NCBI GenBank assembly: GCA_024640315.1
Contig: JAHEFF010000006.1
Location: 10,169 to 74,168 of the forward strand
Length of the DNA: 64,000 bases
DNA from: Woeseiaceae bacterium
GTDB lineage: Bacteria; Pseudomonadota; Gammaproteobacteria; Steroidobacterales; Woeseiaceae
Direction: 5' to 3'
The notes beneath the pieces were generated by a model, which saw only the letters and a list, made by a program, of their open reading frames with translations, ran no database searches and was not told the origin of the DNA. The first letter of the stretch is position 1. Each line of letters begins with the position of its first letter. The position numbers and the translations under genes were made by a program. Shown here piece by piece: positions 17,185 through 33,860 of this stretch.

Positions 17185-17195
17185 AGAGACAAAAT

Positions 17196-19608: not shown

Positions 19609-20106
19609 TCAGATGTAGATGATGATCGTATTCAGCGTTGCATCACAGTTGATGATGTCGACTCGCTTGGATCTGATCTTGTAGCGGTCTCCGTCCCTGA
19701 CAAGTTCGTGCGTGTACTTGCCAGCGTATGGCGTTTGTTTGTCGCGGTAGTACAGGAAACAGTGAAAGTTCGACGTCACCGTGCAATCACCTGACTTCTC
19801 ATCCAGTTCCCGGACCTGAACATTTGAGATAATGTGTGACGCGCGAACATCATAGTCCTTGGACGCTGCAGCCGGGTGTACGAAATTTCGTCGTCTCACC
19901 TCCATAAGCACGCGATCATCATAGAAAAGCGAGATGTGCGTGTGCGGATCTTCCTGGTCAGGAATCGCCGGCATCCAGTAGGTACCATCCTCTGTGTAGA
20001 GATTGATCCAGGCGTCGAGGTCCGGCCGGTCGAGACAAGCGGCTTCCTGGTAGAGTAGCTGCTCTATTTCGCGGATCTTCTCGTTACTTGTAATGACGGC
20101 GGTCAT
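19609..20106 (-). CDS. aromatic-ring-hydroxylating oxygenase, beta subunit
   Basis: 165 aa with NTF2/SnoaL-like fold and a small-subunit pattern (LLYQEAACLD...W..LYTEDGTYWMP...FVHP). 1 nt downstream of the alpha subunit. Confidence 0.85.
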   Translation of the reverse strand: MTAVITSNEKIREIEQLLYQEAACLDRPDLDAWINLYTEDGTYWMPAIPDQEDPHTHISLFYDDRVLMEVRRRNFVHPAAASKDYDVRASHIISNVQVRELDEKSGDCTVTSNFHCFLYYRDKQTPYAGKYTHELVRDGDRYKIRSKRVDIINCDATLNTIIIYI

Positions 20107-20107
20107 C

Positions 20108-21406
20108 TCACGCGGCCTCCGTCATGTACTCTCGCCAGGCACTGAACTGCGTCCTGACGTCGAGGTCACTGGTTCCCTTGCCGACCATCCGGTCTTCCAG
20201 CTTTTCATCCCGGGCAAAATTTCGGTGCATCTCGATCCAGTCGGAAGCCTGCGACTGCAAACCTTCCTGCATGCGGAAATAGGCAGTGAGATCATCCGGG
20301 CCAACCATCGAACCATTGGAATTTATCAATCGCGAATAAAGCAGCGTTCGTTTCAGCATGGAATCCGGCGCGCCCTTTAGCCGGAATGACCAGGTCTCGA
20401 TGATGGTCTTGTTGTAGGCAATGGGTCGCACGACGCGAATGTTCTGCACCGCGGACTTGATCGTCAACGACGGGTAGTAGAGCGTATTGTGCGTGTTAAA
20501 GGAAAGGATCTCCTGCATCCTCTCTTTGCCATAGGCCTTCAACATCGCGGCTTCATACTCAGGATCCAGCGTGTATTTCGCGTGAATACTCGTCTTGCCG
20601 CCATCGTAGTGGTGGCCGAACCTGAAACCGGTGATGCCGGTTTCCTCAAAGGTTTCATACGATGCGCCAAATGGCGGAATGATTTCAGCTTCGTCGCGGC
20701 GCGGCGAGCCTTCCGGCAGTGTCTTTATATAGTCGAGCGCCGATTCGACCACCGAGCGATGCACAATCATCGGGTGCATTGTGTCATTCAGATTCTCGAT
20801 GAACATCTTCCAGTTACACTCGTGCTCATAACGCAAGACACCACCCGCCGCTTCGACTTCCCCTTCCGGCGCCCGATCACACAAGTTGTCCATGACATCG
20901 GCAGCGCCACCCATCCACGTGCGAAGGTCGGGAGGATTCGGATTCATCGTCGCGAATACGAAGCCGCGAAAGCTCTCGGACGTCATTTTCTGCATACTGT
21001 ATTGCGGATCGTCCTTGTCGAAATCAGTACCGTCATAGCCCTGCAAGTGCGGCACGCCCAATAATTTTCCGTCCAGACGATAGCGCCAGCCGTGATAGCA
21101 ACAACGAAAGGCCGGGATCTTGCCACATGGCCGGTCGACCAGTTTCGCTCCTTTGTGACCACAACGGTTGTGCAGAACGTGCACGTCATTGTCGTTGTCC
21201 CGGACCATGACGACCGGTACTTTGCCGTAGTTGAGCGTCATGTAACTGCCCTTCTCGGGCACCTGGCTTTCGTGCCCGATGTAGATCCAGGCATTCGCCC
21301 AGATTCGTTCCATTTCCAGGTCGAAGATCTCGGGGTCGGTATAAAGACTTCGGTGCACCTTCGTCGGCTGCACCATGTCGGCAATTTGCTGTTCCGTGTA
21401 ACTCAT
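20108..21406 (-). CDS. Rieske non-haem-iron aromatic-ring-hydroxylating oxygenase, alpha subunit
   Basis: 432 aa. Rieske motif CGHKG...CCYHGWRY and mononuclear-iron motif NLNDTMHPMIVH. Confidence 0.9.
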   Translation of the reverse strand: MSYTEQQIADMVQPTKVHRSLYTDPEIFDLEMERIWANAWIYIGHESQVPEKGSYMTLNYGKVPVVMVRDNDNDVHVLHNRCGHKGAKLVDRPCGKIPAFRCCYHGWRYRLDGKLLGVPHLQGYDGTDFDKDDPQYSMQKMTSESFRGFVFATMNPNPPDLRTWMGGAADVMDNLCDRAPEGEVEAAGGVLRYEHECNWKMFIENLNDTMHPMIVHRSVVESALDYIKTLPEGSPRRDEAEIIPPFGASYETFEETGITGFRFGHHYDGGKTSIHAKYTLDPEYEAAMLKAYGKERMQEILSFNTHNTLYYPSLTIKSAVQNIRVVRPIAYNKTIIETWSFRLKGAPDSMLKRTLLYSRLINSNGSMVGPDDLTAYFRMQEGLQSQASDWIEMHRNFARDEKLEDRMVGKGTSDLDVRTQFSAWREYMTEAA

Positions 21407-21420
21407 TGCTGGGTCCTCAT

Positions 21421-23811
21421 TTATTTCTGCAGCACTTCACCACGCGCCACTGCGATCGCCAGCGCTTCGCTGGGGTTCGGCGGCTTGGCTGCGCTGCGCA
21501 ATTCAAGCATTTCCTCATTTGCTTTCGCTGCCAGGATCTCCGCCATGAATTTCCCGGACGAGTACTGGGGCGCCCAATACTGATTCGAATATCCATAATG
21601 CGCCGCTGCTTTTAGTACAAAGTGGGGTTCGTTCATGATGGAACGACCCAATGCGACGATGTCGGTTCGACCGGCGGCAACCAGGGTGTTCGCCTGGTCA
21701 GCCGAGGTAATATTGCCAGCGACAATAGTTGGAATGCCGACTTCATTTCTGATCTGGTCGGAAAACGGCGCCTGGAACATGCGCCCATAGATCGGATCCT
21801 CATCCTTGGTAACCTGACCTGTCGACACGTTAATGATGTCGATTCCGGCATTCTTCACCATCGTTGCCACAGCGAGCATGTCGTCCTCAGACAGCCCGCC
21901 ATCGACCCAGTCGGTTGCCGAAATTCGTACCGACATTGGCTTGTCCGCAGGCCATGCCGCGCGCATCGCCGTAACAACGCGAAGCGGAAACTTCATGCGA
22001 CTGTCGATATCGCCGCCAAACTCATCGTCACGTCGATTGGTGCAAGGACTGATGAAGCTCGACAACAGGTAACCATGCGCCAGGTGGACTTCGATCATAT
22101 CGAAGCCTGCCCGCGCGGCGTTTTCTGCCGACTTCACAAAAAGTTCGGTGACGGCGTCCATGTCCTCGCCCGTCATCTCTCGCGGCACAACACTGTGTTT
22201 GAGATAGGGAAGCGGTGATGGCGCAATGATTTCCCAGCCGCCTGCCGGCAGAGGCTCGTCAATGCCACCTTTCCAGGGAACGCAGGTCGCGCCTTTGCGG
22301 CCGGCGTGGCCAATTTGCGCACAAATCTTCGCCTTGCTGTTTTTATGAACAAAATCAACAATATGACGCCATTTTTCGGTCTGCTCAGGGCTCCAGATAC
22401 CGGCGCATCCAGGGGTGATTCGCCCGTCCGGCGCCACACAAATCATTTCGGTATTCAGCAAACCCGCGCCACCGACCGCGCGCGCTCCGTAATGCATAAG
22501 GTGCCATTCTGTCGGCATGCCGTCTTCCGCACAGTACTGCGCCATCGCAGACAACTGGAACCGATTCTCGACCCGCATGTTGCCGATTTTGAACGGCTGG
22601 AACACTGGCACAGTCGGGTTTTCCGTATCGATGTCATGAAAACCCGTCGTTGCCTTGGCGTGACCGGCGAACCACTTATCCATCCTCTCTATGTAGTCCG
22701 GATCCCTGAGCCTGAGGTTTTCATACGTCACGCGTTTCGCCCGACACATCATATTGAACGTGAACTGCTCGGCTTCCTGCGTGCCACCATAACGGTCGAT
22801 GTGTTCGAACCAGCTGAGGGACACCACAGCGGTTCTCTGCAGGCGGTCGGCCTCATCCTTGCGAATGTTCTGATACATTTCGAGTGCTTTTTGCACGTCA
22901 TTGCCACACTGAGCGAAATATCCGGCGAGTGCGATGGCATCTTCCATCGCCAGTTTCGTACCGGAACCGATGCTGAAGTGTGCGCTGCGCACCGCGTCGC
23001 CCATCAGTACGATGTTCTTGTAGAAAAGACGTTCATTGCGGACGACCGGAAACGTGCGCCAAACTGATCGATTCGTAACAATCGGGTAGCCATCGAGATC
23101 GTCTTTGAACAATTCTTCGCAGTAGGCCCTGGTGTCCTCCTCGGTCGCATGTTCCATACCGGCGGCAGCCCAGCTATTTTCACTTGTCTCAACGATCCAT
23201 GTCGTCGTGCCCTCTTCGTAGCGATAGGCATGCGCCCACCACCAGCCATGTTCGTTCTTGCGGAAGATAAACTCGAAATCATCAATTGGCTTGGACGTCG
23301 CAAGCCAACAGAACTTGTTGGCACGCCAGTCCATCGTCGTGCCAAATTCGTCCTGGTACTTCTCACGCAGAATCGACGTAATACCGTCGCCGGCAACGAC
23401 GAGATCGTATTCATCCGTATGCAAATCATCGACATCGGTGATATCTGTGTTGAACCTGATGTTGACGCCGAGTTCGTCACAGCGATCGTGAAAGATATTG
23501 AGCAGCTTCAGCCGGGACATGCCGCAGAAGCCGTGCCCTTGCGAATTCACGGTCTTACCATGAATCTTTGTGTCAATACCGCCCCAGTAAGCGAACTGTT
23601 CGACAATCCGTTTGTAACTTGCGGCGTCGGCTTCCATGAATCCACGCAGTGTCTCATCCGAAAACACCACGCCGAATCCCCAGGTTGAATCGCGGTCCCC
23701 CCGTTCGATAACCGTAATGTCATGCGACGGATTCGCTTTCTTCATCAGGATCGAGAAATAAAGTGATGACGGACCGCCACCGAGACAAAGAATTTTCAAA
23801 CCATCAGCCAT
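21421..23811 (-). CDS. bifunctional FAD aromatic hydroxylase :: Old-Yellow-Enzyme reductase (2-aminobenzoyl-CoA monooxygenase/reductase / salicylyl-CoA 5-hydroxylase type)
   Basis: 796 aa. N-terminal half: ILCLGGGPSSLYF (FAD dinucleotide fold) and GDAVRSAHFSIGSGTKLAMEDA. C-terminal half: OYE/TIM-barrel NADH:flavin oxidoreductase (HLMHYGARAVGGAGL, EVHLAHGYLL, GRS..N/EP). Confidence 0.85.
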   Translation of the reverse strand: MADGLKILCLGGGPSSLYFSILMKKANPSHDITVIERGDRDSTWGFGVVFSDETLRGFMEADAASYKRIVEQFAYWGGIDTKIHGKTVNSQGHGFCGMSRLKLLNIFHDRCDELGVNIRFNTDITDVDDLHTDEYDLVVAGDGITSILREKYQDEFGTTMDWRANKFCWLATSKPIDDFEFIFRKNEHGWWWAHAYRYEEGTTTWIVETSENSWAAAGMEHATEEDTRAYCEELFKDDLDGYPIVTNRSVWRTFPVVRNERLFYKNIVLMGDAVRSAHFSIGSGTKLAMEDAIALAGYFAQCGNDVQKALEMYQNIRKDEADRLQRTAVVSLSWFEHIDRYGGTQEAEQFTFNMMCRAKRVTYENLRLRDPDYIERMDKWFAGHAKATTGFHDIDTENPTVPVFQPFKIGNMRVENRFQLSAMAQYCAEDGMPTEWHLMHYGARAVGGAGLLNTEMICVAPDGRITPGCAGIWSPEQTEKWRHIVDFVHKNSKAKICAQIGHAGRKGATCVPWKGGIDEPLPAGGWEIIAPSPLPYLKHSVVPREMTGEDMDAVTELFVKSAENAARAGFDMIEVHLAHGYLLSSFISPCTNRRDDEFGGDIDSRMKFPLRVVTAMRAAWPADKPMSVRISATDWVDGGLSEDDMLAVATMVKNAGIDIINVSTGQVTKDEDPIYGRMFQAPFSDQIRNEVGIPTIVAGNITSADQANTLVAAGRTDIVALGRSIMNEPHFVLKAAAHYGYSNQYWAPQYSSGKFMAEILAAKANEEMLELRSAAKPPNPSEALAIAVARGEVLQK

Positions 23812-23822
23812 CTACTTCACCG

Positions 23823-24548
23823 CTACAGCGAGAGCGAGCCAAGACTCGCGCCCCCACATACGAAAAGACATTGTCCCGTGACGAAGCCGTTGTCGGGCGC
23901 CGCAAGAAACATAACCGCTCTCGCGACATCGTCAGCACGACCCAGGCGCCTCACTGGCAAACCTCTGGCAATTTGTTCGGCCTTGTCGCTGTCTTCCGGA
24001 ACAACATCCGTAAACATGTCTGTCAAGATAGGCCCGGGGGCGACAGCGTTGACCGTAATGCCGTGCTGGCCAAGCTCCATGGCCCAGGTCCGAACCAATC
24101 CTATTTGCGCAGCCTTGGTCGCCGAGTAGGACGTGCGTGTCTCGAGCCCCAGCATGGCACGTGACCCGATGATGACGATTCGGCCAAAACCGGCACGTTT
24201 CATGGCATCAAGCACACCCTGCGTCAACACTATGCTTGCTGACAGGTGCAGGTTCGTCAGGTACTGCAGGTCCTCAAGCTGCACATCTTCAATGAGGTTT
24301 GGCCGGATCACACCGGCGTTGTGTACGAGCGTCGTAATGTCGTACTGGCCGGCAAGTTCTGCGATGGCTTCCTTTGTCGCCTCAACGTCGGCAAGGTCGA
24401 CCGGATGATCAATCAGTCGCTCATGGCTGCTTTCTGATCCCCGGCGGGAAAGGTTTAGAACGACATACCCATCCTCCAGCAAATGCTGGCAGATGCTCTT
24501 CCCTATCCCGGCGCTAGCGCCGGTTACCAGTGCAATTTTTTCGCTCAT
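23823..24548 (-). CDS. short-chain dehydrogenase/reductase
   Basis: Track ORF trimmed to MSEKIALVTGASAGIGKS, whose ATG overlaps the upstream stop as ATGA. Has NAG and YSATKAA catalytic motifs. Confidence 0.85.
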   Translation of the reverse strand: MSEKIALVTGASAGIGKSICQHLLEDGYVVLNLSRRGSESSHERLIDHPVDLADVEATKEAIAELAGQYDITTLVHNAGVIRPNLIEDVQLEDLQYLTNLHLSASIVLTQGVLDAMKRAGFGRIVIIGSRAMLGLETRTSYSATKAAQIGLVRTWAMELGQHGITVNAVAPGPILTDMFTDVVPEDSDKAEQIARGLPVRRLGRADDVARAVMFLAAPDNGFVTGQCLFVCGGASLGSLSL

Positions 24549-25336
24549 GCAGCACTCCTGTCGACCAGGGCCAGCACGCGCAGCGGGCTTCCGGAACCGT
24601 TTTTTATTTTTAGCGGCGGGCACACAAGAATCGCTCCGGTCGGTGGCAGCTCATCAAGATTGGCCAGGCACTGCAATCCGTATTTGCCGGCACCATGCAA
24701 CAAATAGTGCGCGGGGTACGGTGGCGACAGATGGGTCGCCTGACCAGCATCTGTTCCCACCGTTTCTGTACCGAAGCCAATGATCTTGCGTTCCTCGACG
24801 AGGAGTTTTACCGCATCTCCGGTCGGACCCGGTGTATGCGCGCCATCATCGCGCATGTTCAGGTATTCTGCGCCGGATCGCTTGGACCAGTCGGTGCGCA
24901 TCAGCACCCAACTCCCCTCCGGTATGACACCGTGTGTTTGTTCCCAGGCGACGATGAATTCCGGCGTCAGCAAAAAGTCTTCATCGTCGGCCGATTCCTG
25001 CGAACAATCGATCACACATACAGGGCGGACAAAAGCGTCGGCCGGAATGCTGTCCACGGCGGCATCGGGAAGATCCTTGCCGGAAATCCAGTGAATAGGT
25101 GCATCAAAATGCGTGCCCGTATGTTCGCTACAGGTAAAGTTGCGCCAGTACCACGCAGGACCTCGCTCATCGTAACGAGACACTTCTTCGACACGAAAAC
25201 GGGCGCATTGCCCAAATTCCGGTGGCAACACGATGACCGGAAAGTCCGGGTCCAGCGTGTGCGTCAGGTCGACGGTTACGATGCTGCCGCTCGTTAGTGC
25301 ACCAGCAAGCGCCTGCAGTGCATTCGTTTCATTCAT
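24545..25336 (-). CDS. cyclase-family metal hydrolase (kynurenine formamidase / isatin hydrolase family)
   Basis: 263 aa. The HTGTHFDAPIHW motif (HxGTHxDxPxH) is diagnostic for the putative-cyclase/KynB fold. Confidence 0.85.
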   Translation of the reverse strand: MNETNALQALAGALTSGSIVTVDLTHTLDPDFPVIVLPPEFGQCARFRVEEVSRYDERGPAWYWRNFTCSEHTGTHFDAPIHWISGKDLPDAAVDSIPADAFVRPVCVIDCSQESADDEDFLLTPEFIVAWEQTHGVIPEGSWVLMRTDWSKRSGAEYLNMRDDGAHTPGPTGDAVKLLVEERKIIGFGTETVGTDAGQATHLSPPYPAHYLLHGAGKYGLQCLANLDELPPTGAILVCPPLKIKNGSGSPLRVLALVDRSAA

Positions 25337-25338
25337 AT

Positions 25339-26595
25339 TTACATGCCCTGGTTGATTTGGGTCAGTTCTCTTTCGAGAACAAATGGGTCCTCTTTGTAGC
25401 GCCGCACAACGTCTTCAGCGACCGGGCCGAGCGTTACATTTTCGATGCCCTGGGTCAGCGCATGAATGACCGTGTCGGCAAGCCGTTGCGGTGTCACTTT
25501 GGGTGGCGGCAACGGCTGACGCCACGATTCCTCCAGCGGACCAAACAGCACATTGATCACTTTGACACCGCTGCCCGCAAACTCGCCACGCAGGCACTGG
25601 CTGAGCGAGAGCGCCGCCGCCTGGCTTGCCGAGGTCGTGCCATATACAGGCCAGTTGGAGAGAGAGTAAACCGACAACAGGTTAACCCAGGCGCAAGCGC
25701 TGTTATCACCGTCTGCGCCGCGCGCTTTCATGCCGGGCCCAAATGCCTGAATCAGCCGCATCAACCCAAAGTAGTTTGTCTCCATCTCGTCGCGGGCCAG
25801 GGTGACGCCGTGCCGCTGCATAACGGATCCCGGACGGACGTATTCAGCAGTATTGATAAGGATGTCTGCCTTGTCTCCCATCTCTGCGGCCAGTTCGTTG
25901 ACCGAAATTGTATCGGTGATATCGAGCGGCATAATCTCGACGCCGGGAATCGCTTCAAGTGCCTCGCTGCCCTCGTACGGCCGCCATTTCTCGGCAATGC
26001 CAACGAAGATCCGGGTAGCACCGGCGTCAGCGAGCGCCTTGACCATGCGCTGGCCGAGTTCGGTACGCCCGTCGGTGACGAGCGCACGACGGTACTTGGG
26101 ATTACAGGTCAGCGCTCGCAGTTGTCGATCGTCTGCCATGTTCGGTGTCTCCTTTTCGGGTAGCGCCAGCATGACGCCCTGCCCGGATTTATCGGTTCGG
26201 GCAATCATTCTCACCCGTTCGAATTCGCCCACGTCGCCATGAATGTGCGCCAGCACGGTCGGCCCGGCATCGAGCTGAATGGTGCCAATGCGCCACGGCA
26301 TTCTTTCGCGGAAATAGGAATTGACGCTGGTTCGAAGCGTTGTCTCGGAAATCAGCTTGCCGCCATCAGGGATGTCCCGCCATTCGAGTTCCATCGACCA
26401 GCACTTCGGGCAAACTTCGCGCGCGGGATAAGTAACGTGCTCACATTCGGCACAAACCTGCAGCGCGAATCGCCCTTCCGCTGCCGCCAATGTAAATGCA
26501 ATCGCCTTGCGACTGCGCGCATACGGCGGCAGCGTCGGCGAGTTCGTGCGTTTTTGCGGGTCCTTCTTGGGCGGTCGCTTGAGCGCGTCAGTCAT
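25339..26595 (-). CDS. DUF35 (Zn-ribbon + OB fold) fused to a degenerate SDR-like domain
   Basis: Trimmed to MTDALKR (ATGA overlap with the upstream stop). N-terminal part: CAECEHVTYPAREVCPKC four-Cys ribbon plus OB region. C-terminal part: Rossmann-like ALVTDGRTELG, with VYGTTSASQAAAL where SDRs carry Y-x-x-x-K. Confidence 0.75.
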   Translation of the reverse strand: MTDALKRPPKKDPQKRTNSPTLPPYARSRKAIAFTLAAAEGRFALQVCAECEHVTYPAREVCPKCWSMELEWRDIPDGGKLISETTLRTSVNSYFRERMPWRIGTIQLDAGPTVLAHIHGDVGEFERVRMIARTDKSGQGVMLALPEKETPNMADDRQLRALTCNPKYRRALVTDGRTELGQRMVKALADAGATRIFVGIAEKWRPYEGSEALEAIPGVEIMPLDITDTISVNELAAEMGDKADILINTAEYVRPGSVMQRHGVTLARDEMETNYFGLMRLIQAFGPGMKARGADGDNSACAWVNLLSVYSLSNWPVYGTTSASQAAALSLSQCLRGEFAGSGVKVINVLFGPLEESWRQPLPPPKVTPQRLADTVIHALTQGIENVTLGPVAEDVVRRYKEDPFVLERELTQINQGM

Positions 26596-27812
26596 GTCCG
26601 CCCCAGTATCGCTGCGCCGGAACAAAGCCCGCGATCGAAATTAATAATGCCAAAGCCGGATACCGCGGCGTATTGCGCGTCGGGAACCGCATTCTGCTCT
26701 GCACCGCCGGTTAGCTGCCTGATCGCCTCGACCAGGCCGAGGAAACCTCCGGCTGCGCCTGCCTGGCCAACCGACAACTGACCACCCGAGGTATTGTGCG
26801 GAAACGTGCCATCGTAAGTGAATGTATTGGACTGAATGAATTCGCTGACAGATCCCTTCTCGCAAAAGCCAAGATCCTCCATCTGCATCGCACTGATGAC
26901 CGGGTAATCATCATACGTCTGCAACAGGTCAACATCCCCGGGACTGATGCCGGCCATGCTCCAGAATTCATCCTTGTCCAGCGCCCAGCCACCACGAATC
27001 TGTACCGGATCGTCGGGATATGAGTTGTGTCGCTCCACGGTGGAGAGAATGTGCGCATACGGCAGGTTTTGTGCCCTCGCATCCTCTTCGCGCATAACGA
27101 GGTAAGCTTCCGCGCCAGCACAGGGCATGACGCAGTCGTACAGCACAATCGGGTCAGCTATCAGCCTGGCGCTCATGTATTCGTCCAGCGTCAGCGGCTT
27201 CTTCATCATCGCGTGCGGATATTTCAGCGCATTGTCGCGCTGGGCGACGCACAGCTTGCCAAAGTCTTCCCGCTTGACGCCATAGGCGTCCATGTAGCGG
27301 CTGGTCATCAGCGAGAAACTGCCGTTCGGCCCACCTGAGCCATACGGATACGAAGCATCCTGGGAAAACCGGCTGAAGGTGGTCAGCATCGCTCGAAATG
27401 AGTCAACGTGATTGGTATCGCCCGAGATACAGGCAACGACGCTGGCATCGCCGGACTGCACAGCCCTGGCGGCACGCCGCAAGGTAATCACGCCCGATGC
27501 GCCACCGGTCGGCACGTGATCGAGCCAGCGCGGCGTAAGCCCGAAATGCTGCGTCAAACCTGCGGCGGTATCAGGAAACAAGGTGAACGACGAAACGCAC
27601 AATCCGTCCACATCGTCGGCACCCAGCCCGCTTTGCTTGCCAAGGTCAGATAACACTCTCGCAAGCCACCAGTGGGCAGGCTCAGGCGAATACCGCTCAT
27701 AAGGAACGCTTGCGGGTGCGGTCACCACCACACCCTCATATCCCGAACGATGTTTGACTGAATTTCGCACTACATCCTTTTTCTTTTCTTGAATTCCCTG
27801 AGATCGGCGCAT
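26592..27812 (-). CDS. thiolase-fold protein of the SCP-x/Ltp type lacking the thiolase catalytic residues
   Basis: 406 aa with the typical SCP2-thiolase scaffold (NTSGGQLS.G...G). By-eye alignment shows GGASG in place of the nucleophile CxxG, YDDY in place of HDCF and GQA in place of GHP. The start is uncertain: 27812 overlaps the ligase gene by 43 nt, and GTG 27770 is an alternative. Confidence 0.8.
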   Translation of the reverse strand: MRRSQGIQEKKKDVVRNSVKHRSGYEGVVVTAPASVPYERYSPEPAHWWLARVLSDLGKQSGLGADDVDGLCVSSFTLFPDTAAGLTQHFGLTPRWLDHVPTGGASGVITLRRAARAVQSGDASVVACISGDTNHVDSFRAMLTTFSRFSQDASYPYGSGGPNGSFSLMTSRYMDAYGVKREDFGKLCVAQRDNALKYPHAMMKKPLTLDEYMSARLIADPIVLYDCVMPCAGAEAYLVMREEDARAQNLPYAHILSTVERHNSYPDDPVQIRGGWALDKDEFWSMAGISPGDVDLLQTYDDYPVISAMQMEDLGFCEKGSVSEFIQSNTFTYDGTFPHNTSGGQLSVGQAGAAGGFLGLVEAIRQLTGGAEQNAVPDAQYAAVSGFGIINFDRGLCSGAAILGRT

Positions 27813-29365
27813 TCTTTTTTCGCGATGCGGTCGCGTGCCATCTGCTTGATTTCACCACGACTCACTTTCTGCGAAGCAGTCAGCGGCAGCTCTGGCACAA
27901 ACGCGATGTAACCAGGCACCTTGAAGTATGTCAGATGCTTCATACAATGATCGAAGATTTTGCGGGCATCCGCGCCTTTCTCATTGATAATAAAGGCAAA
28001 AACCTCATCGCCCCGGATCTCGTCAGGCACCGCACAGACCGCGCAGCCGATCACGTCGGAGCTTTGCAGAAGCACCGCTTCGACCTCGACCGCAGCGATG
28101 TTCTCACCGCTTCGTCGAATGACATTCTTGCGCCGGTCGACGAAGTAGAGAGAGCCGTCGTCACCTTCGCGGACAACATCTCCCGTGTGCCACCAGCCAC
28201 CCTTCCAGCCTTTCTCGGTCGCTTCAGGGTCCTTGTAATAGCCGCTGAAGAATCTCTTCCTGGGGTCGTCGCCTTTTGCTCGAACCAGCAGTTCTCCGGC
28301 TTCACCGGCCGGCACGTCTTCGTCCTGCTCATCCACGACACGGTAGTCCATCGAATCGATTGGCGGACCGATGCAACGACTGCCAACGTGCCGCGGATCT
28401 TTGTACGCAATGGTCATCCCGCCGGCGCCCGACTCCGTCATAGCCCAGGCCTCGATCAACGGTACGCCGAATCGTTTTTCGAACACACCCTGGTGTTTCG
28501 GGTCAGATCCGGGACCAAAACAAAATTTGATCTGCCCCGAAAAATCGTCGCGATCATCTTCCGGCAGTGTGAGCAGAATTGCCGTCATCACGCCCAGGCA
28601 ATGAATGATAGTTGCCTTTTCTTCGCGAACCGTTTGCCACCAGGTGCGCGGGTGGAAACGATCTAATTGGATTACGCAGCCGCCAGAAAGCATCATCGCC
28701 GGGAATGACGTGCACAGCGCGTTCATGTGATTTGGCGGCAGCGGCGTCATCAGCCGGTCGTCCTTATCCATGCTGCAGATTCCACCGAGTCCGACGTACC
28801 AGTCCCCCAACGCCAGAAAATACTCGTTCGACAGCATACAACCCTTGGGTTTACCGGTCGTACCGGAGGTGTACAGCAATGCGGCTTCTGCAGACAAGTC
28901 GGGCCTGGCAAGCTTCGCGGCGCCCACACTGCCAGTCAGGTCGGATTCGGCGATGACTTCGCAAATGTCCAGCCCGGCAAATCGTTCGCCGTACTCGGGC
29001 AGCGCAACGAGCAGCCGGCTGTCACTGTGACCGACGATATGCAGAAGCTCATCGTCACTCGCGCCGGAGTTTAAGGGCACAATGCTGACGCCCAGCGCAT
29101 TCAGCGCAAGCAGGTGAAGATAAACCTCAAGGCGACTGTCGAAGGCCAGCGCAACCCGGTCGCCGGGCTCGAGGCGTCTTGCCGCGTAGCCGACGATCAA
29201 CTGGCCGACCCGGGTTCTTGTTTCTTCGTATGAGTATTCGATCGCGGAGTCTGAATAAGCCTTTGCACTGTCAGCGGGCACACGAAGAAAGGACCGCGGA
29301 CCATACTCCTCAACAGCCCGTTCGAACGCCTGATATACGCTGTGCTGTTCCGCGACTGATCCCAT
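27770..29365 (-). CDS. AMP-forming acyl/aryl-CoA ligase
   Basis: Has LYTSGTTGKPKGCM, TGD and a C-terminal K motif. Trimmed to MGSVAEQ, so that TGATG overlaps the upstream stop by 1 nt. Confidence 0.9.
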   Translation of the reverse strand: MGSVAEQHSVYQAFERAVEEYGPRSFLRVPADSAKAYSDSAIEYSYEETRTRVGQLIVGYAARRLEPGDRVALAFDSRLEVYLHLLALNALGVSIVPLNSGASDDELLHIVGHSDSRLLVALPEYGERFAGLDICEVIAESDLTGSVGAAKLARPDLSAEAALLYTSGTTGKPKGCMLSNEYFLALGDWYVGLGGICSMDKDDRLMTPLPPNHMNALCTSFPAMMLSGGCVIQLDRFHPRTWWQTVREEKATIIHCLGVMTAILLTLPEDDRDDFSGQIKFCFGPGSDPKHQGVFEKRFGVPLIEAWAMTESGAGGMTIAYKDPRHVGSRCIGPPIDSMDYRVVDEQDEDVPAGEAGELLVRAKGDDPRKRFFSGYYKDPEATEKGWKGGWWHTGDVVREGDDGSLYFVDRRKNVIRRSGENIAAVEVEAVLLQSSDVIGCAVCAVPDEIRGDEVFAFIINEKGADARKIFDHCMKHLTYFKVPGYIAFVPELPLTASQKVSRGEIKQMARDRIAKKECADLREFKKRKRM

Positions 29366-30819
29366 CAGTCGGGCACCTCCCAATGCGGGGGTAACAAACG
29401 GCGTTTTCCGTCACTGGACAAGGAAACGCCGGGCGCGTCCTTGTCCTCGCGATCCCACAATTCGCAGGTAACCTGCTTGTGCCTGGTATCGAGGGCCTCG
29501 CAGTAGTTTGAATAGATGCAGACCCTGACCTGGTCTCCGTAACCAAGCCGCATTTTCAGGAACCAGTCCGGATCCGCAATTGACTGTCTTGCAGAGCCTA
29601 TGATGTCAGCCTCACCGGCCTGCAGTATTCGCTCTGCCTCGACGAAGCCGTGAATGCCGCCTGCGACGACTACCGGCGTTTCGTAACCAGCCTCTCTGAT
29701 CGCGCGCCGCACCTGGGCCGTCGCGGGAAGATTGCGGCCGAAAGGGCCTTTCTCGTCAGAAATGTACTGCGGCATGCATTCGTAACCGCTCTGGCCTGTG
29801 TACGGATAAGCCGCCGCCCCTACCTTCGGCTGTTTCGCGTCCTCGAATTTGCCACCGCGCGACAGTGACAGGAAATCCATGCCAGCTCTCGCAAACTCCA
29901 CGCCGAAATATGCCGCGTCATCTGCCACCGAACCCCGCTCGATAATTTCGTCGGCGAGAAAACGGCAGCCCACAACGTAGTCGTCGCCAGTGGCTTGCCG
30001 CACAGCACGGTATACCTCAATCGGCAGGCGCGCGCGACCTGCAAGATCACCACCATAGCCGTCGTCGCGAGTGTTGCGCGCTGAAAGGAATGAGGCCATC
30101 GTATAAGCGTGAGCAAAGTGCAGCTCGACACCATCGAAACCCGCCTTTTGTGCACGCACTGCTGCATCGGCAAAAAGGCGTGGAAGCGTCTGCGGAAGGT
30201 CCCTGATGTGAGGTAAATCAGTATCGGTCACGCGCTCCCGGTAACCCTGTGCATAGCTCTCGTACTCGCGCCGGCTGAGTGCCTCGACGAGAGCCTCATC
30301 CGTCAGCTCCAGAAGTTTTTCGCGAATCTCTTCGTCGGTAAATTTGTTGTAGAAATACGCGCGATGTTCGTCAGTGATTTTAAGGTAACGCTCGAAGTAC
30401 TTCTCGGCTGTCGGCCGGCGGTTGATGCGCAGGAAGTCGATGATCTGAATGAAGAGCTTCGTTTCACCTTCACTGGCTTCGCGAACCGCTTCTACCAGTT
30501 CCTGTAGTCCGGGAATAAAACGGTCATCGCCGATCCGGAGTAATGGCCCGCTGGGGACATCGCGAATACCGGTCGCCTCGACGACAATAACGCCGGGCTT
30601 GCCTTCTGCGTAACGGCGGTACCAGTCGAGCACATCCGACGTGATCATGCCATCTTCCGTCGCGCGCCAGGGTACCATCGCCGGGACCCAGGTTCGTTGC
30701 GACAACCGGGTCGGCCCGATCGCGACAGGGCTGAACAACTTCGATGCAGCAGCCTCTTCTGCTGTCGGCCACGGACCCGGCTGTGGTTTGTATTTGATTC
30801 TTTCTTTTGGTCGCCACAT
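29365..30819 (-). CDS. NADH:flavin oxidoreductase (Old Yellow Enzyme / 2,4-dienoyl-CoA-reductase N-terminal-domain type)
   Basis: 484 aa. Contains GVELHFAHAYTMASFLS and a GG.GR.RL-type motif. A C-terminal Cys-containing stretch (CIYSNYCEALDTRHKQVTC) resembles an incomplete FadH Fe-S motif. Confidence 0.82.
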   Translation of the reverse strand: MWRPKERIKYKPQPGPWPTAEEAAASKLFSPVAIGPTRLSQRTWVPAMVPWRATEDGMITSDVLDWYRRYAEGKPGVIVVEATGIRDVPSGPLLRIGDDRFIPGLQELVEAVREASEGETKLFIQIIDFLRINRRPTAEKYFERYLKITDEHRAYFYNKFTDEEIREKLLELTDEALVEALSRREYESYAQGYRERVTDTDLPHIRDLPQTLPRLFADAAVRAQKAGFDGVELHFAHAYTMASFLSARNTRDDGYGGDLAGRARLPIEVYRAVRQATGDDYVVGCRFLADEIIERGSVADDAAYFGVEFARAGMDFLSLSRGGKFEDAKQPKVGAAAYPYTGQSGYECMPQYISDEKGPFGRNLPATAQVRRAIREAGYETPVVVAGGIHGFVEAERILQAGEADIIGSARQSIADPDWFLKMRLGYGDQVRVCIYSNYCEALDTRHKQVTCELWDREDKDAPGVSLSSDGKRRLLPPHWEVPD

Positions 30820-30827
30820 CGTATCGA

Positions 30828-31607
30828 TTAGTCCCGGGAACCGGTCTCCTGTAATTGCGCTTCGAATGAACCCCTGATGTAGTCCGGTATCCGGATGGAC
30901 TCAAATCCGTCATCCAGCATTTGCACAAAAACGACCACCTGTTCGTTTTCAACGAGGCACTCCTCGTTGCTGACCAACCAGCTTTTGAATGTCATGGACC
31001 GGTCGCCGATCTTGACGGGACGAAGCCAGATCGAAACGGATTCGCCAACCGCAGGGAGCCTCCTGACACGCGTATTGAACTGAACGGTTGGGATGCCGAC
31101 TTTGCGTTCGACGTGCAATTCATTAAACGGCACATCAAGCGTGGCTTCGAACCACTCCTCAATTGCCTGGTTCAAAAGCTCGAAGTACCGTGACAACTGC
31201 ATGCATCCGGTCCGACCCGAGGACCACTCGCCGACAACTTCCGGTTCCGTTATGAAAGCTACGGCGTTTTGCCGGTGCGCATCAGCCGCTAGTTCACTGT
31301 GGGTTTCCAGCGGGCGCATCGAAAAACAGTCGTTGCCGTTCATCCGGCCTGTCACGGACCAGCCACCGGACTTTGAATCGGCGTCAACAGCGATACTGAT
31401 CTGGTCACCGAGCCGGTTTGGTTTCAGAAATTGCGTCTTGATTGCTGTGGGCGTTCCCGCAAATGGCACATCAGCGAAATGGCGAAAGATCATCTCGAAA
31501 TATCGTGGATAAAAGACGATGCCGGCCGGATCCACCTGGGGAAATCGGATCGTCACCACGCGCTCCGCCAGTCGGGGCATTTGCTCGCCTTTACTGTTTG
31601 CAGTCAC
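30828..31607 (-). CDS. tandem hot-dog (4HBT-type) acyl-CoA thioesterase
   Basis: 259 aa with two repeats of the 4HBT pattern (VDPAGIVFYPRYFEM..., LSRYFELLNQAIEEWF...). GTG start at 31607. ATG 31580 (MPRLAERV) is an alternative. Confidence 0.68.
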   Translation of the reverse strand: MTANSKGEQMPRLAERVVTIRFPQVDPAGIVFYPRYFEMIFRHFADVPFAGTPTAIKTQFLKPNRLGDQISIAVDADSKSGGWSVTGRMNGNDCFSMRPLETHSELAADAHRQNAVAFITEPEVVGEWSSGRTGCMQLSRYFELLNQAIEEWFEATLDVPFNELHVERKVGIPTVQFNTRVRRLPAVGESVSIWLRPVKIGDRSMTFKSWLVSNEECLVENEQVVVFVQMLDDGFESIRIPDYIRGSFEAQLQETGSRD

Positions 31608-31627: not shown

Positions 31628-31647
31628 TGTTTTCTTATGTTTTCTTG
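31628..31647. repeat. tandem 10-bp direct repeat TGTTTTCTTA/TGTTTTCTTG in the thioesterase-MarR divergent intergenic region
   Basis: Read directly, 9/10 identical units, 21-40 nt from the thioesterase GTG. Function unknown; possibly an operator or UP-like element. Confidence 0.4.
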
Positions 31648-31780: not shown

Positions 31781-32251
31781 ATGAATCAAAAAGAAAAAAT
31801 ACCAAGCAAGGGCGACTCGAGAACCAAGGAATCCATACGAACCTGGCTGCGACTCTTGTCCTGCGAGACGGTCATCGAGCAGCAATTGCGCTCTCTTTTC
31901 AGGACCAATTTTTCGGTCACCCTGCCTCAATTCGACGTACTGTCCGAACTTGAGCGGACAGGCGAGCAGATGACGATGTCCGAGCTCTCAAGAGAACTCA
32001 TGGTCTCTAACGGCAACGTGACCGGCGTCATCGACCGGCTGGAGAAAAACGGCTTTGTCACCAGGACCCGCGCAGAACACGACCGTCGCGTCCAGTATAT
32101 TGAGCTGACGCCAAAGGGCCTTGGCGAATTCAATGAAATGGCCCGACATCATGCCTCCTGGCTCGATGATATGCTTTCAGATTTGTCGATGAACGACATG
32201 GCAAGTCTGCAGCAATTGCTTCTCAAAACGAGGAGCTCTGCCGGTAAGTAA
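31781..32251 (+). CDS. MarR-family transcriptional regulator
   Basis: Track ORF 31637..32251 trimmed to MNQKEKIPSKG. Winged-helix core LPQFDVLSELERTGEQMTMSELSRELMVSNGNVTGVIDRLEKNGFV.R..EHDRR. Confidence 0.85.
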   Translation: MNQKEKIPSKGDSRTKESIRTWLRLLSCETVIEQQLRSLFRTNFSVTLPQFDVLSELERTGEQMTMSELSRELMVSNGNVTGVIDRLEKNGFVTRTRAEHDRRVQYIELTPKGLGEFNEMARHHASWLDDMLSDLSMNDMASLQQLLLKTRSSAGK

Positions 32252-32292: not shown

Positions 32293-32700
32293 TCACCTGG
32301 CGCGATCAACTGCCCGGGGAATAATGGCGGTCGACTCAATTTCGATCATCGCGTTTGGCTCAACGAGGCCTGTCACACCCACAACCGCCATCGCGGGAAA
32401 ATTCTTGCCCATGACGTCCCTGTAGGTTCGACCGATGCCGGGAAGATTATTCCGGTAATTTTCGAGGTCAGTGACATACCAGGTCATTCGCACGACATGC
32501 TCGGGACCGGCGTCCGCTTCTGCGAGGACCGCGACCGTGTTCCTGAGCGTTTGTTCCAGTTGTTCAACGAAGTCATCCGGAAACTCTCCTTTTTCATTCC
32601 AGCCAATCATGCCGGCCACGTGGACCTGCTGTCCGCTGGCAAGAATTCCATTTGAATATCCGCTTGGCCTTGACCATCCCTGCGGTAGTAAATGCTTCAT
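32293..32700 (-). CDS. ridA: RidA/YjgF-family enamine/imine deaminase
   Basis: 135 aa. GYSNGI...HVAGMIG...PAMAVVGV..L.....IEIE pattern of the YjgF/RidA fold. ATGA overlap with the ACAD stop. Confidence 0.88.
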
Positions 32701-33860
32701 TGATTGTTTCCACTGTAGGTTTGTCTTGCGATGATAATTTTCTGCACTTCGCTCGCGCCTTCATAGATTCGTAGAGCACGAATTTCGCGATAGAGGCTTT
32801 CTGCCATGTTGCCCTTTGTGACGCCCTTTCCACCGTATAGCTGTACTGCCCGGTCGATTATTTTTTGCGCCGCCTCAGTCGCATAGAGTTTTGCCATCGC
32901 CGCTTCGCGCGTGACCCGATCCTGGTAGCAGTCTTTCGCCCACGCAGACCTGTAAACCAGCAGCGCGCTTGCATCGATCTCAGTCGCCATGTCGGCAACG
33001 GCGCTTTCCGTCATTTGCAACGCGGCGAGCGGCGCTCCGAAAATTTGCCGGGTAGTCGTATGTTGCAGCGCTTCATCCAGCGCACGCCTGGCGAAGCCCA
33101 AAGCAGCGGCCGCAACGGTGGTGCGAAACACATCCAGTGTCGCCATTGCGACTTTGAAACCTTCACCTGCAGCGCCAATCATTGCCGAGTTCGGGACACG
33201 GCAGTCATTGAACGAGAGCGTTGCCAGGGGATGTGGCGCAATCGTCTCGATACGCTCCGTGATCGAAAGACCCGGATTATTTGCATCAACAATGAAAGCA
33301 CTCAGGCCTCGGGCACCTGGCGCTTCCCCGGTACGCGCAAAGACGCAATAGAAGTCAGCGATTCCGCCGTTCGAAATCCAGGTCTTCGCGCCATTGAGAA
33401 CGAATTCGTCCCCTGCCGCTACAGCGGTTGTCGCCATCGCCCCAACATCGGAGCCCGCTTCAGCCTCCGACAATGCAAACGCTGCAATCGTTTTGCCTGC
33501 GGCCACGCCTGGCAGGTAGTTCCTGCATTGTTCATCCGTACCGAAAAGCGAGATCGGGCCGCTACCAAGACCCTGCATTGCAAAAGAAAAGTCGGCCAGG
33601 CCTGAGTGATATCCGAGAGTCTCCCGGCACAATGCAAGACTTCTCACATCGAGTTTATCTGCGGCGCCACCCCATTCGGCAGGAACGCAATTTCTGAGAA
33701 TCCCGGCCTTTCCAAGATCAACCACCAGTGAGCGGCATAATTCGTCGACGTCGCCATCGTGGCTGAACACTTGCTGCCCACACCAGTCATCGAGGCCGGC
33801 CTTCAATTTGCGATGGCTGTCCTCCAGGAATGGCCAGTCGAGATAACTTTTGTCACTCAT
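32697..33860 (-). CDS. acyl-CoA dehydrogenase
   Basis: Trimmed to [11 protein letters not shown]; the Arg-rich 41-aa extension in the track overlaps the upstream gene. Has GSDVGAM, WISNGG and the catalytic-base region [17 protein letters not shown]. Confidence 0.9.

Follow-up and report, generated by a model that had tools for sequence, protein, structure and literature searches.

A putative Woeseiaceae locus for auxin breakdown, merged with a CoA-dependent anthranilate pathway

What compound does a run of tightly packed genes at positions 19609–31607 of a Woeseiaceae contig act upon? Within the window (the whole stretch of DNA analysed, 64 kb in length), the list of open reading frames and Pfam matches place here ten tightly packed, co-directional genes on the minus strand and a divergent MarR gene. 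An earlier note on this DNA had described an eleven-gene operon; the domains that it named and the tight packing stand, but ten genes run in one direction and the regulator diverges from them. Its gene junctions (8 nt, a 1-nt overlap, a 1–43-nt overlap, ATGA, 2 nt, ATGA, 11, 14 and 1 nt) were reproduced when recalculated from coordinates and from the ATG starts inside the translated frames. A chance run of open reading frames is ruled out because the identical gene order recurs in at least 12 other genomes, at 59–94% amino-acid identity.

The earlier note took anthranilate or a related benzoate as the primary substrate; we infer indole-3-acetate (indole-3-acetic acid, IAA) instead. In the reading that we consider likely, 19609–31607 would be the distal operon of a two-operon locus of ∼21 kb (19609–40632). 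In this DNA, as in three further contigs from Woeseiaceae, the other operon, IorA-IorB-SDR-ECH-ACAD-RidA, forms one tight unit; loci L085–L087 keep it. The locus probably represents the iad locus, known from bacteria that break down the plant hormone auxin, in a Woeseiaceae-like form from marine sediment that has merged with the CoA-dependent anthranilate (ACMR) pathway; its overall course would plausibly run from IAA to isatinate, on to anthraniloyl-CoA and then to dearomatisation. All genes given below with coordinates lie on the minus strand except the MarR gene.

A probable route from indole-3-acetate to isatinate

Judged by sequence, seven of the ten genes (Rieske alpha and beta, AMP-forming ligase, Cys-less thiolase, DUF35::SDR-like fusion, cyclase and SDR) are the IadD/E/F/G/H/I/J set. 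The canonical iad operon of Roseibium has the order MarR/C-D-E-F-G-H-I-J, and IadF to IadJ are 44–72% identical to it. The known pathway leads from IAA to isatin and then isatinate, with genes assigned to steps by Jiang et al. 2025. For example, the top PDB matches of IadD, the predicted IAA 2,3-oxygenating Rieske alpha subunit (20108..21406; Pfam Rieske and Ring_hydroxyl_A), are to Variovorax IadD (7yls_B and 9o71_A, 426 bits), with biphenyl dioxygenase next at 153 bits. Identity to the characterised Variovorax enzyme is only 44%; the four Rieske ligands, the three Fe ligands and the full set of nine IAA-pocket residues (Lys and Arg among them) are kept. These 16 functional residues, taken from PMC10374108, are kept in 82 of 82 homologues save for one exception at one site, whereas a non-iad Variovorax paralogue differs at two pocket positions. 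The beta subunit, IadE (19609..20106; Ring_hydroxyl_B; 37% identity to Roseibium IadE), comes after IadD in every locus with sequence reaching that far.

Might this set work on some other arylacetate, in the style of ibuprofen (ipf) degradation? The ipfABDEF genes belong to the families found here (Rieske alpha and beta, CoA ligase, SCPx-like thiolase and DUF35), and both a PaaK and a penicillin-amidase-like acylase lie close by. We give this idea very little credence, since the complete IAA pocket argues against it, as does the isatin hydrolase within the operon, which would be without a role in a catechol-forming ipf-type route. For IAA as the substrate, homology to characterised enzymes suggests that IadDE would begin by oxygenating it at C2–C3. 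There is no IadC reductase in the whole 64-kb window, and IadC is missing from 79 of 80 related loci; the oxygenase is therefore without a known reductase, and no electron donor for IadDE is encoded here.

Removal of the side chain would follow. IadJ (23823..24548; Pfam adh_short; 47% identity to Roseibium IadJ), with a probable ATG start at 24548 and a longest open reading frame to 24623, carries TGASAGIG, NAG and YSATK motifs and is predicted to be active; Variovorax IadJ produces dioxindole-3-acetate, and by homology to characterised enzymes the protein here would form the same compound by dehydrogenating the hydrated product. On similar grounds, IadF (27770..29365, probable ATG start at 29365, longest frame to 29383; AMP-binding and AMP-binding_C) would make the CoA thioester of dioxindole-3-acetate. 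Full-length comparison gives IadF 44% identity to its Roseibium counterpart, against just 26% to the ligase of the Ralstonia ACMR cassette, and no aryl-carboxylate ligase model ranks among its top NCBIfam matches. Thiolases have a nucleophilic Cys motif at the site where IadG (26592..27812; Thiolase_C_1; 66% identity to Roseibium IadG) has G-G-A-S-G, residues 103–107, and the PDB matches of this thiolase-fold protein include the Ltp2 aldolase 6ok1 (119 bits). IadH (25339..26595, probable ATG start at 26595, longest frame to 26625; zf-ChsH2, OB_ChsH2_C and adh_short; 56% identical to Roseibium IadH) fuses a DUF35 zinc-ribbon/OB part to a degenerate SDR-like domain; the catalytic Tyr, the Lys and the Gly-rich motif are absent from that domain in all 20 fused homologues, and in 46 loci the DUF35 part stands alone. 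We infer that IadG is the retro-aldolase partner of IadH, and that together the two would cleave off the side chain as acetyl-CoA, probably by retro-aldol chemistry, to leave isatin.

IadI (24545..25336; Pfam Cyclase) matches isatin hydrolase A of Labrenzia aggregata (LaIHA; 5nna/5nnb) with 445 bits and 72% identity over 254 ungapped residues. LaIHA is an assayed isatin hydrolase (PMC6117287), and the protein that occupies the IadI position in the Roseibium iad operon shares 96% identity with it. By homology, then, IadI would open the ring of isatin to give isatinate.

These assignments bear directly on the earlier proposal, in which the 537-aa ligase converts free anthranilate, salicylate or an ortho-substituted benzoate to an aryl-CoA, the FAD-monooxygenase::OYE fusion dearomatises it, and the thiolase/DUF35 proteins, the OYE and the thioesterase form the lower pathway. 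The fusion's membership of the ACMR/SdgC family and the adjoining cassette-type SDR, ECH, ACAD, RidA and MarR genes are in keeping with such a route. We nevertheless think it very improbable: IadF–J and IadD/E have their orthologues here in the ligase, thiolase, DUF35::SDR-like protein, cyclase, SDR and Rieske subunits, whose order is kept in loci without the fusion within 10 kb of IadD, and the cyclase is an isatin hydrolase. The ligase, far closer to Roseibium IadF than to the cassette enzyme, is not an aryl-carboxylate ligase dedicated to the fusion. All seven of these proteins, the aldolase-like thiolase IadG among them, act upstream of anthranilate and not in the lower pathway for which that thiolase had been a candidate.

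The fusion and the anthranilate cassette

The 796-aa fusion (21421..23811; FAD_binding_3 and Oxidored_FMN) is in our assessment an anthraniloyl-CoA monooxygenase/reductase of the ACMR / salicylyl-CoA 5-hydroxylase family. Its match to NF006101, a model named for salicylyl-CoA, aligns profile positions 1–763 of 768 and at 1040 bits falls just under the NCBI cut-off of 1078; close homologues are named anthraniloyl-CoA monooxygenase by JGI, and identity to the Ralstonia cassette enzyme is 47%. This full-length, member-like match upholds the earlier assignment to the 2-aminobenzoyl-CoA monooxygenase/reductase type. The operon is not, however, built around the fusion, as had been supposed: seven of its genes make up the IadD–IadJ set, and the fusion is an insertion, carried by some 25 of the 80 related loci.

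In Ralstonia the intact cassette reads ACMR-SDR-MarR-ECH-ACAD-ligase-thioesterase-RidA, whereas here its genes are dispersed in the window, at 47–69% identity. The fusion, the adjoining SDR-ECH-ACAD-RidA genes and MarR match this separate cassette at the level of sequence, and the tandem thioesterase probably does as well. The adjoining genes encode a RidA-family candidate enamine/imine deaminase (32293..32700; Ribonuc_L-PSP; 50% identity to its Ralstonia counterpart), an acyl-CoA dehydrogenase (32697..33860; Pfam ACAD domains; 63%), an enoyl-CoA hydratase-family protein (33865..34671; NF006107 at 476 bits, cut-off 330; 69%) and a hydroxyacyl-CoA dehydrogenase-like SDR (34679..35434; adh_short; 57%). 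The earlier view that they belong with the fusion has held up, given this 50–69% identity and their co-operonic placement with it in four loci. The ACAD is 62–65% identical in loci that have it co-operonic with ACMR, and neither the window nor any of the 80 related loci contains an orthologue of the Ralstonia cassette ligase (best match 32.5%). Two observations count against the proposed merger: RidA orthologues also occur in iad loci that lack ACMR within 10 kb of IadD, and in four ACMR-linked loci IorAB, IadF and IadI are all missing within that distance.

The fusion would dearomatise anthraniloyl-CoA, after which RidA may deaminate the enamine and ECH, SDR and ACAD may process the alicyclic thioester. 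Arthrobacter grown on anthranilate contains the ACMR product in hydrolytically deaminated form, as its CoA ester, which fits the RidA step. Or does the fusion act as an SdgC-like hydroxylase only, 5-hydroxylating anthraniloyl-CoA (or salicylyl-CoA) so that the thioesterase frees 5-hydroxyanthranilate (or gentisate) for ring cleavage elsewhere? The name of its best NCBIfam model, salicylyl-CoA 5-hydroxylase, and the thioesterase at the head of the operon are in line with this, as is the formation of 5-hydroxyanthraniloyl-CoA by ACMR under limiting NADH (cited in PMC3534580). We find it improbable in view of the intact OYE half, of the alicyclic-type SDR, ECH, ACAD and RidA that travel with the fusion, and of the 64-kb window, in which no ring-cleavage dioxygenase was found.

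Two further proteins are best read as accessories outside the proposed steps. The stand-alone OYE-family flavoprotein (29365..30819; 484 aa; Oxidored_FMN at residues 27–425, with an insertion of ∼60 residues) ends in CIYSNYC...C, just three Cys of the FadH/TMADH-like cluster motif; it has no close relative among solved structures and is also found, at 61–65% identity, in loci without ACMR within 10 kb of IadD. The tandem hot-dog thioesterase-like protein (30828..31607; 4HBT_2) shows one 4HBT_2 stretch by Pfam and two stretches that match thioesterase 3ck1; it resembles the Ralstonia cassette thioesterase only weakly (24–36%), and our best guess is that it rescues CoA from dead-end thioesters. 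The MarR regulator (31781..32251, plus strand; 156 aa; open reading frame 31637–32251, probable start 31781) is 47–50% identical to that of the Ralstonia cassette, has homologues of 156–157 aa at the same position in L085–L087, and has no IadR structure among its PDB matches; it is a predicted cassette-type regulator.

A predicted bridge through IadAB

How would isatinate become anthraniloyl-CoA? Upstream of the cassette genes lie IadB (35481..36977; POR CoA-binding domain and DUF6537; NF006179 at 615 bits, cut-off 348) and IadA (36977..39109; TPP_enzyme_C/N and Fer4_10, hence TPP and 4Fe-4S; TIGR03336 at 287 bits), the beta and alpha subunits of an IOR-family enzyme, and, 221 nt upstream of IadA, a PaaK-type arylacetate-CoA ligase (39331..40632; TIGR02155 at 709.8 bits, cut-off 646.3), whose role in this pathway is uncertain. 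The usual substrates of IOR enzymes are arylpyruvates. The genes iadA and iadB (iorB/iadB) are IAA-induced markers of iad loci, and the sole 2-oxoacid among published iad intermediates is isatinate. Only in Variovorax strains that over-express iadC-K2 on top of the HS33 deletion, and so lack iadAB, did isatinate build up strongly. We predict that IadAB, as an IOR-type 2-oxoacid oxidoreductase, makes the thioester directly, converting isatinate and CoA to anthraniloyl-CoA and CO2; this step would stand in for the ligase present in ACMR cassettes elsewhere.

An alternative keeps the same iad-plus-ACMR locus and moves IadAB to another substrate: it would make indoleacetyl-CoA from indole-3-pyruvate (from tryptophan), or form an arylacetate/arylpyruvate unit with PaaK, while free anthranilate, formed as in Variovorax, is activated by PaaK or an unlinked ligase. 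The TIGR03336 and NF006179 matches and the family name point to indolepyruvate, the PaaK-IorA-IorB adjacency seen here is kept in L086 and L087, and an indoleacetamide hydrolase-like amidase and an aromatic amine dehydrogenase close by suggest a feeder theme. In addition, Variovorax iadC-K2 without iadAB still gives anthranilate, so IadAB is not needed for anthranilate there. On the other side, IorA and IorB adjoin isatin hydrolase, co-oriented and with IadA directly downstream of it, in 16 complete loci where no PaaK was found within 10 kb of IadD; here IorAB heads the operon bearing the post-ACMR genes; and no ACMR-linked iad locus holds a cassette-type ligase. PaaK-type enzymes activate arylacetates, not benzoates, which counts against PaaK acting on anthranilate. 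We therefore regard this alternative as unlikely, though it deserves serious attention, and favour isatinate as the substrate of IadAB. With that step in place, the merged locus hints at full consumption of auxin without free anthranilate.

Operon anatomy and homology to indole-3-acetic acid degradation genes

The ten co-directional minus-strand genes at 19609-31607 carry the domains listed in the earlier note (ORF table and Pfam scan), and the MarR gene is indeed on the plus strand, its start lying within 31637-32251 (Pfam scan). When the junctions were recomputed from the coordinates and from internal ATG codons in the translations, they agreed with those described: 8 nt, a 1-nt overlap, a 1-43-nt overlap, ATGA, 2 nt, ATGA, 11, 14 and 1 nt. 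The gene order is found again in other genomes at protein identities of 59-94%, so the operon is real and conserved. In the stretch between the MarR gene and the operon, a search for inverted repeats returned a weak 13-nt palindrome only. The assigned function has had to be revised, however: the earlier note read the operon as part of a possible aerobic route for anthranilate or a related ortho-substituted benzoate, whereas homology to IadD-IadJ places seven of the ten genes in the upper part of iad, the aerobic pathway for indole-3-acetic acid (IAA, auxin), from IAA to isatinate, and not in a lower pathway for a dearomatised benzoyl-CoA.

For example, the best PDB match of the Rieske alpha subunit (20108-21406, minus strand) is Variovorax IadD, at 426 bits compared with 153 bits for biphenyl dioxygenase, and IadD and IadE form the oxygenase that starts aerobic IAA degradation in the iad pathway (PMC10374108, PMC12633357). 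Overall identity to Variovorax IadD is 44%; the four Rieske ligands and three iron ligands are identical, and all nine residues of the IAA pocket (N210, L211, H216, H221, F251, H311, K322, R329 and Y362, Variovorax numbering) are conserved. This signature is kept in 82 of the 82 homologues collected, with a single L-to-Q exception. Another candidate iad locus, on the Variovorax paradoxus SPNA7 replicon NZ_CP138514 (L081), was rejected: its PDR-reductase/Rieske alpha/beta trio (13028-15784) is paralogous to C-D-E, shares 43% identity with true IadD (as distant in sequence as window IadD), differs at two pocket positions (F251N, K322H) and has no IadF-I nearby. The trio could be mistaken for iad in sequence searches.

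Since this SPNA7 match is not an iad locus, a plasmid operon of Roseibium (formerly Labrenzia) aggregatum, rather than Variovorax sequences, served as the reference for F-J. It consists of MarR and then PDR-reductase, Rieske alpha, Rieske beta, AMP ligase, thiolase, a 418-aa "SDR", cyclase and SDR, the same canonical order, C-D-E-F-G-H-I-J, as described in Variovorax. The window proteins F, G, H, I and J are 44, 66, 56, 72 and 47% identical to their Roseibium counterparts, and the F-G-H-I-J order is the same. The "cyclase-family hydrolase" (PF04199; 24545-25336), our IadI, matches isatin hydrolase A of Labrenzia aggregata (LaIHA) at 445 bits, with 72% identity over 254 residues ungapped, while kynurenine formamidases score at most 33 bits; isatin hydrolase activity has been measured for LaIHA (PMC6117287). 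The protein in the IadI position of the Roseibium operon (21813-22586 of L082, plasmid NZ_CP045623) is 245/254 (96%) identical to crystallised LaIHA (PDB 5NNA), and a text search of PMC6117287 and PMC12633357 found that neither links LaIHA to an iad-type operon.

Enzymes F to J have published assignments: IadF in the CoA activation of dioxindole-3-acetate, IadG/IadH in removal of the two-carbon side chain, IadI in the amidase step and IadJ in the dehydrogenation that gives dioxindole-3-acetate (Jiang et al.). As the earlier note had observed, the thiolase-fold protein IadG is Cys-less, with GGASG in place of the nucleophilic cysteine motif; its best PDB match is an uncharacterised entry (9myr), and it also matches the Ltp2 aldolase (6ok1, 119 bits). 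IadH (25339-26625, minus strand) is a fused DUF35::SDR-like protein with homologues in L001-L042 and in the Roseibium operon, and a PDB search with it returned no specific functional relative. The CxxC...CxxC zinc ribbon of its DUF35 part is conserved in 20 homologues. The SDR-like half lacks the catalytic Tyr/Lys and the Gly-rich nucleotide motif in 20/20 fused homologues, the Roseibium protein included, and is absent altogether in 46 loci, where the DUF35 part stands alone. These features make it doubtful that IadH is an "alcohol dehydrogenase", as published annotation has it; the SDR-like half is probably a scaffold. The steroid side-chain retro-aldolase Ltp2-ChsH2 likewise pairs a Cys-less thiolase fold with a Cys4 zinc-ribbon/OB DUF35 partner, but there DUF35 is joined to a MaoC hydratase rather than to a degenerate SDR-like domain, and the substrate inferred here would be dioxindole-3-acetyl-CoA.

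By homology to characterised proteins, IadDE would oxygenate IAA (step 1), IadJ would dehydrogenate the hydrated product to dioxindole-3-acetate (step 2), IadF would form its CoA thioester (step 3), IadG/IadH would split off acetyl-CoA to leave isatin (step 4), and IadI would convert isatin to isatinate (step 5). For step 4 we infer retro-aldol chemistry, with Ltp2-ChsH2 as precedent, because a Cys-less thiolase fold and a DUF35 zinc-ribbon partner would here meet a tertiary 3-hydroxyacyl-CoA substrate.

The probable anthraniloyl-CoA cassette and the distribution of the merged locus

The 796-aa fusion (21421-23811) has the architecture originally proposed, with FAD_binding_3 (residues 8-325) and Oxidored_FMN (403-738) on one polypeptide. 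It aligns over its full length with NF006101 (bifunctional salicylyl-CoA 5-hydroxylase/oxidoreductase), the two-domain family of SdgC from Streptomyces sp. WA46, and narrowly misses the equivalog cut-off (1040.4 bits against 1078). In the PDB its N-terminal half matches VioD and its C-terminal half matches OYEs, and close homologues are named anthraniloyl-CoA monooxygenase in JGI. The context differs from that of SdgC, as it would supply an amino- rather than a hydroxy-substituted benzoyl-CoA, and a gentisate pathway was not found among the genes of the 64-kb window.

What, then, belongs with the fusion? Clusters for 2-aminobenzoyl-CoA monooxygenase/reductase (ACMR) in Arthrobacter sp. Rue61a and on the Ralstonia solanacearum megaplasmid share with the window both the FAD-monooxygenase::OYE fusion and its SDR, ECH, ACAD, RidA, MarR and hot-dog thioesterase partners; the abm cluster of Azoarcus evansii is presumably of the same kind. 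An intact cassette on the Ralstonia megaplasmid CP052125 (L083, 14001-22257) reads fusion-SDR-MarR-ECH-ACAD-AMP ligase-thioesterase-RidA. IS elements border it, it turns up in 137 Ralstonia plasmid records, and its host, a plant pathogen, also has a crystallised isatin hydrolase (5NMP). Identities of the window proteins to this cassette fall between 47 and 69% (fusion 47%, SDR 57%, MarR 47-50%, ECH 69%, ACAD 63%, RidA 50%), with a weaker 24-36% for the thioesterase. In the window the cassette genes are dispersed and fall into two operons, where they are mixed with iad genes: the fusion lies between iadJ and iadD, and SDR-ECH-ACAD-RidA come immediately after iadA-iadB in the tightly packed operon upstream. 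Unlike the known clusters, the cassette here lacks the AMP-forming ligase, for which no orthologue was found in the window or in the 80 related loci (best match 32.5%). In Arthrobacter, a verified anthranilate-CoA ligase is carried on a plasmid. The operon's CoA ligase, initially taken for the aryl-CoA ligase of the fusion, is its only class-I ligase and is IadF-like, with 26% identity to the Ralstonia cassette ligase.

Measured against a canonical iad locus, the window has the families IadA, B, D, E, F, G, H, I and J and a regulator of the MarR family, and it keeps the IadD pocket for IAA, the isatin hydrolase step and the F-G-H-I-J order. It departs from that locus in lacking both an IadC reductase and a solute-binding protein/ABC transporter, in placing D-E after F-J instead of before, in carrying the ACMR fusion inside the operon along with a stand-alone OYE and a tandem thioesterase, in co-transcribing IadAB with SDR-ECH-ACAD-RidA, and in its host, a marine-sediment gammaproteobacterium. 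The regulator probably differs as well: a PDB search against solved IadR structures gave generic MarR matches only, and by its sequence the protein looks more like the MarR of the ACMR cassette than like IadR.

To ask how widespread this arrangement is, one genome per species was scanned (185,579 species genomes), yielding 565 confirmed IadD relatives, of which the best 80 were compared. Nearly all of these 80 come from marine Gammaproteobacteria, namely Woeseiaceae, Halieaceae, Luminiphilus, Porticoccaceae and Lysobacterales-like MAGs, plus a few isolates, the nearest being a Woeseiaceae MAG with an IadD identity of 91%. Cultured carriers of ACMR-less types are Elongatibacter sediminis CH-27, Haliea sp. 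E1-2-M8, Kineobactrum sediminis F02 and Parahaliea mediterranea. Almost all of the 80 loci share the core order F-G-(H or stand-alone DUF35)-J-D-E. In 18 loci a full-length fusion immediately precedes iadD, and three or four truncated contigs can be added to these; in four further loci the fusion belongs to a divergent ACAD-ECH-SDR-fusion operon, for a total of roughly 25/80. The arrangement IorA-IorB-SDR-ECH-ACAD-RidA, then MarR, then thioesterase-OYE-F-G-H is kept in three more Woeseiaceae contigs, whose IorB is only 65-69% identical to that of the window.

Two proteins of the operon had been proposed as lower-pathway candidates together with the thiolase. The first, an OYE-family protein of 484 aa, is interrupted by an internal insertion and keeps just three cysteines of the FadH/TMADH-like cluster motif, and a PDB search gave it no close characterised relative and no specific functional relative. 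It is present in iad loci with and without a fusion nearby, and is therefore an accessory of marine iad loci, not of the ACMR cassette. The idea that this OYE replaces IadC was dropped because no complementary distribution with respect to IadC or ferredoxin was seen across loci. The tandem hot-dog protein, in which two stretches match a thioesterase structure as expected from the earlier note, likewise lacks a specific functional relative in the PDB search; our guess is that it is, most simply, a CoA-rescue enzyme.

For the reactions after the fusion (step 8), RidA-type hydrolytic deamination would be followed by ECH, SDR and ACAD. Conservation of the cassette points this way, as does the CoA-ester profile of anthranilate-grown Arthrobacter, which includes the ester of the deaminated ACMR product. 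RidA orthologues also occur in iad loci showing no fusion within 10 kb of IadD, which makes another role for RidA possible, for example hydrating a cyclic imine formed after IadDE.

IadAB and the proposed bridge to anthraniloyl-CoA

The marker genes iadA (36977-39109) and iadB (35481-36977) are present in the window and are named from Pfam and NCBIfam matches to the IOR alpha and beta families. These genes have been used as exclusive markers of iad loci (Conway et al., PMC9613470) and are induced by IAA, and the iad literature examined assigns IadAB no function. We propose that IadAB would oxidatively decarboxylate isatinate with CoA to give anthraniloyl-CoA (step 6). In a literature text search, only the Conway paper (PMC9613470) paired isatinate with anthraniloyl-CoA, and the CoA ester there belongs to the anaerobic iaa route.

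Several lines of reasoning lead to this proposal. Isatinate is the only 2-oxoacid among the published iad intermediates, and IorB has a CoA-binding POR domain. Genomic context is consistent with the same substrate, as an isatin hydrolase gene is followed by co-oriented iorA-iorB in 16 complete loci, mostly from Halieaceae (the spacing in one, L035, is an 18-nt gap and a 4-nt overlap), and as IorAB are co-transcribed with the post-ACMR genes in the window. The ligase has, moreover, been lost from every iad-linked ACMR cassette examined. The hypothetical IadAB reaction would share its chemistry with the phenylglyoxylate:acceptor oxidoreductase (CoA-benzoylating) of Azoarcus evansii, which converts an arylglyoxylate and CoA to an aroyl-CoA and CO2; the subunit make-up of that enzyme differs from that of IadAB.

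Published strains bear on step 6 from both sides. Strong accumulation of isatinate was confined to Variovorax strains in which iadC-K2 was over-expressed in the HS33 deletion background without iadAB, as would be expected if IadAB consumed it, but the same strains still produce anthranilate, which counts against the proposal (Jiang et al.). Also against it, PaaK-IorA-IorB triads, as found in the window and in a further Woeseiaceae contig (L086), are usually read as arylacetate/arylpyruvate units. Weighing these points, we regard it as possible, if somewhat doubtful, that IadAB is an isatinate:acceptor oxidoreductase giving anthraniloyl-CoA directly, such that auxin would be mineralised in CoA-bound form without free anthranilate and the cassette could lose its ligase.

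Electron supply to IadDE raises a related question. No PDR/VanB-type FMN-[2Fe-2S] reductase domain was detected by Pfam in window ORFs of at least 150 aa, and a tblastn search with Roseibium IadC found IadC absent from the window and a PDR-type IadC in 1/80 related loci. A homology search found no ferredoxin homologue in the 64-kb window. Only five loci (L007, L009, L010, L011 and L028, at about 11805-12175) have a 106-aa putidaredoxin-like 2Fe-2S ferredoxin gene immediately after that for IadE, and their organisation is MarR, then ACMR-IadD-IadE-ferredoxin ... IorA-IorB-IadF-IadG; the remaining marine loci, the window included, show neither ferredoxin nor IadC. The possibility that ACMR itself serves as the reductase was rejected because it has no Fe-S centre and is separate from IadDE in four loci. 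A more speculative extension of the isatinate oxidoreductase role is that low-potential electrons from IadAB might feed the reductase-less IadDE.

Possible feeder genes and outlook

A row of genes upstream of IadA (39331-45347, minus strand) encodes PaaK, which passes the TIGR02155 equivalog cut-off, an 804-aa penicillin-amidase/Ntn acylase and a TonB-dependent receptor. Their products might take up and hydrolyse arylacetyl amides or conjugates of auxin; alternatively, the row might reflect an unrelated acyl-homoserine-lactone acylase activity. In L059-L061 (about 13455-17355), loci of the divergent ACAD-ECH-SDR-ACMR type, a PaaK 69% identical to that of the window adjoins a transporter pair (DUF485/SSF) and a PaaZ-like fusion of aldehyde dehydrogenase and MaoC, and may belong to a phenylacetate cluster in those genomes. 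Further along the window are an amidase (45557-47032), which scores 569.7 bits against a cut-off of 532 for the NCBIfam indoleacetamide hydrolase equivalog, preceded by a sodium:solute symporter (47029-48588), and a TTQ-type amine dehydrogenase, represented by both its light and its heavy chain (49332-52933), with cytochrome c and aldehyde dehydrogenase, all on the minus strand. The heavy chain is nearer aromatic amine dehydrogenase (181 bits) than methylamine dehydrogenase (109 bits), and in the Woeseia contigs L086/L087 an ALDH-AADH-DUF485-SSF-PaaK block directly abuts IorA. The amidase could be a feeder, converting indole-3-acetamide to IAA for the iad locus, and the arrangement hints that indole-3-acetamide and arylethylamines may be funnelled towards arylacetates. 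Unrelated to this locus, the window also encodes a 792-aa protein with multihaem cytochrome c motifs and TPR repeats (6138-8516, minus strand) and two sulfatases (2133-3770, plus strand; 57257-61345, minus strand), one next to a TonB-dependent receptor and MFS transporters.

The iad and ACMR modules are each already known; what is new is their merger into a ligase-less, IadC-less, marine locus that is conserved across Woeseiaceae-like genomes. In the iad literature examined, the pathway ends at anthranilate, and iad-like operons were found in only 2/304 marine MAGs in one survey. More generally, operons that look like "aryl-CoA" operons can be composites of two modules, which shifts the choice of substrates to test. 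This one raises testable hypotheses about IadAB, about RidA and about the fate of anthranilate, and from these stems most of its interest, which we consider moderate. The merged locus offers a genomic handle on the role of IadAB, on what becomes of anthranilate after iad, and on the enzymes acting after ACMR. To our knowledge, the enzymes that follow the dearomatising anthraniloyl-CoA monooxygenase/reductase have been a gap since the 1990s.

Woeseiaceae are among the most abundant marine sediment bacteria. Their abundance, together with the marine spread of the closest IadD loci, suggests that auxin turnover may be a common marine trait and not only one of the rhizosphere. If the reading of IadAB is true, auxin would be mineralised by a fully CoA-bound route, with free anthranilate bypassed and the cassette ligase dispensable.
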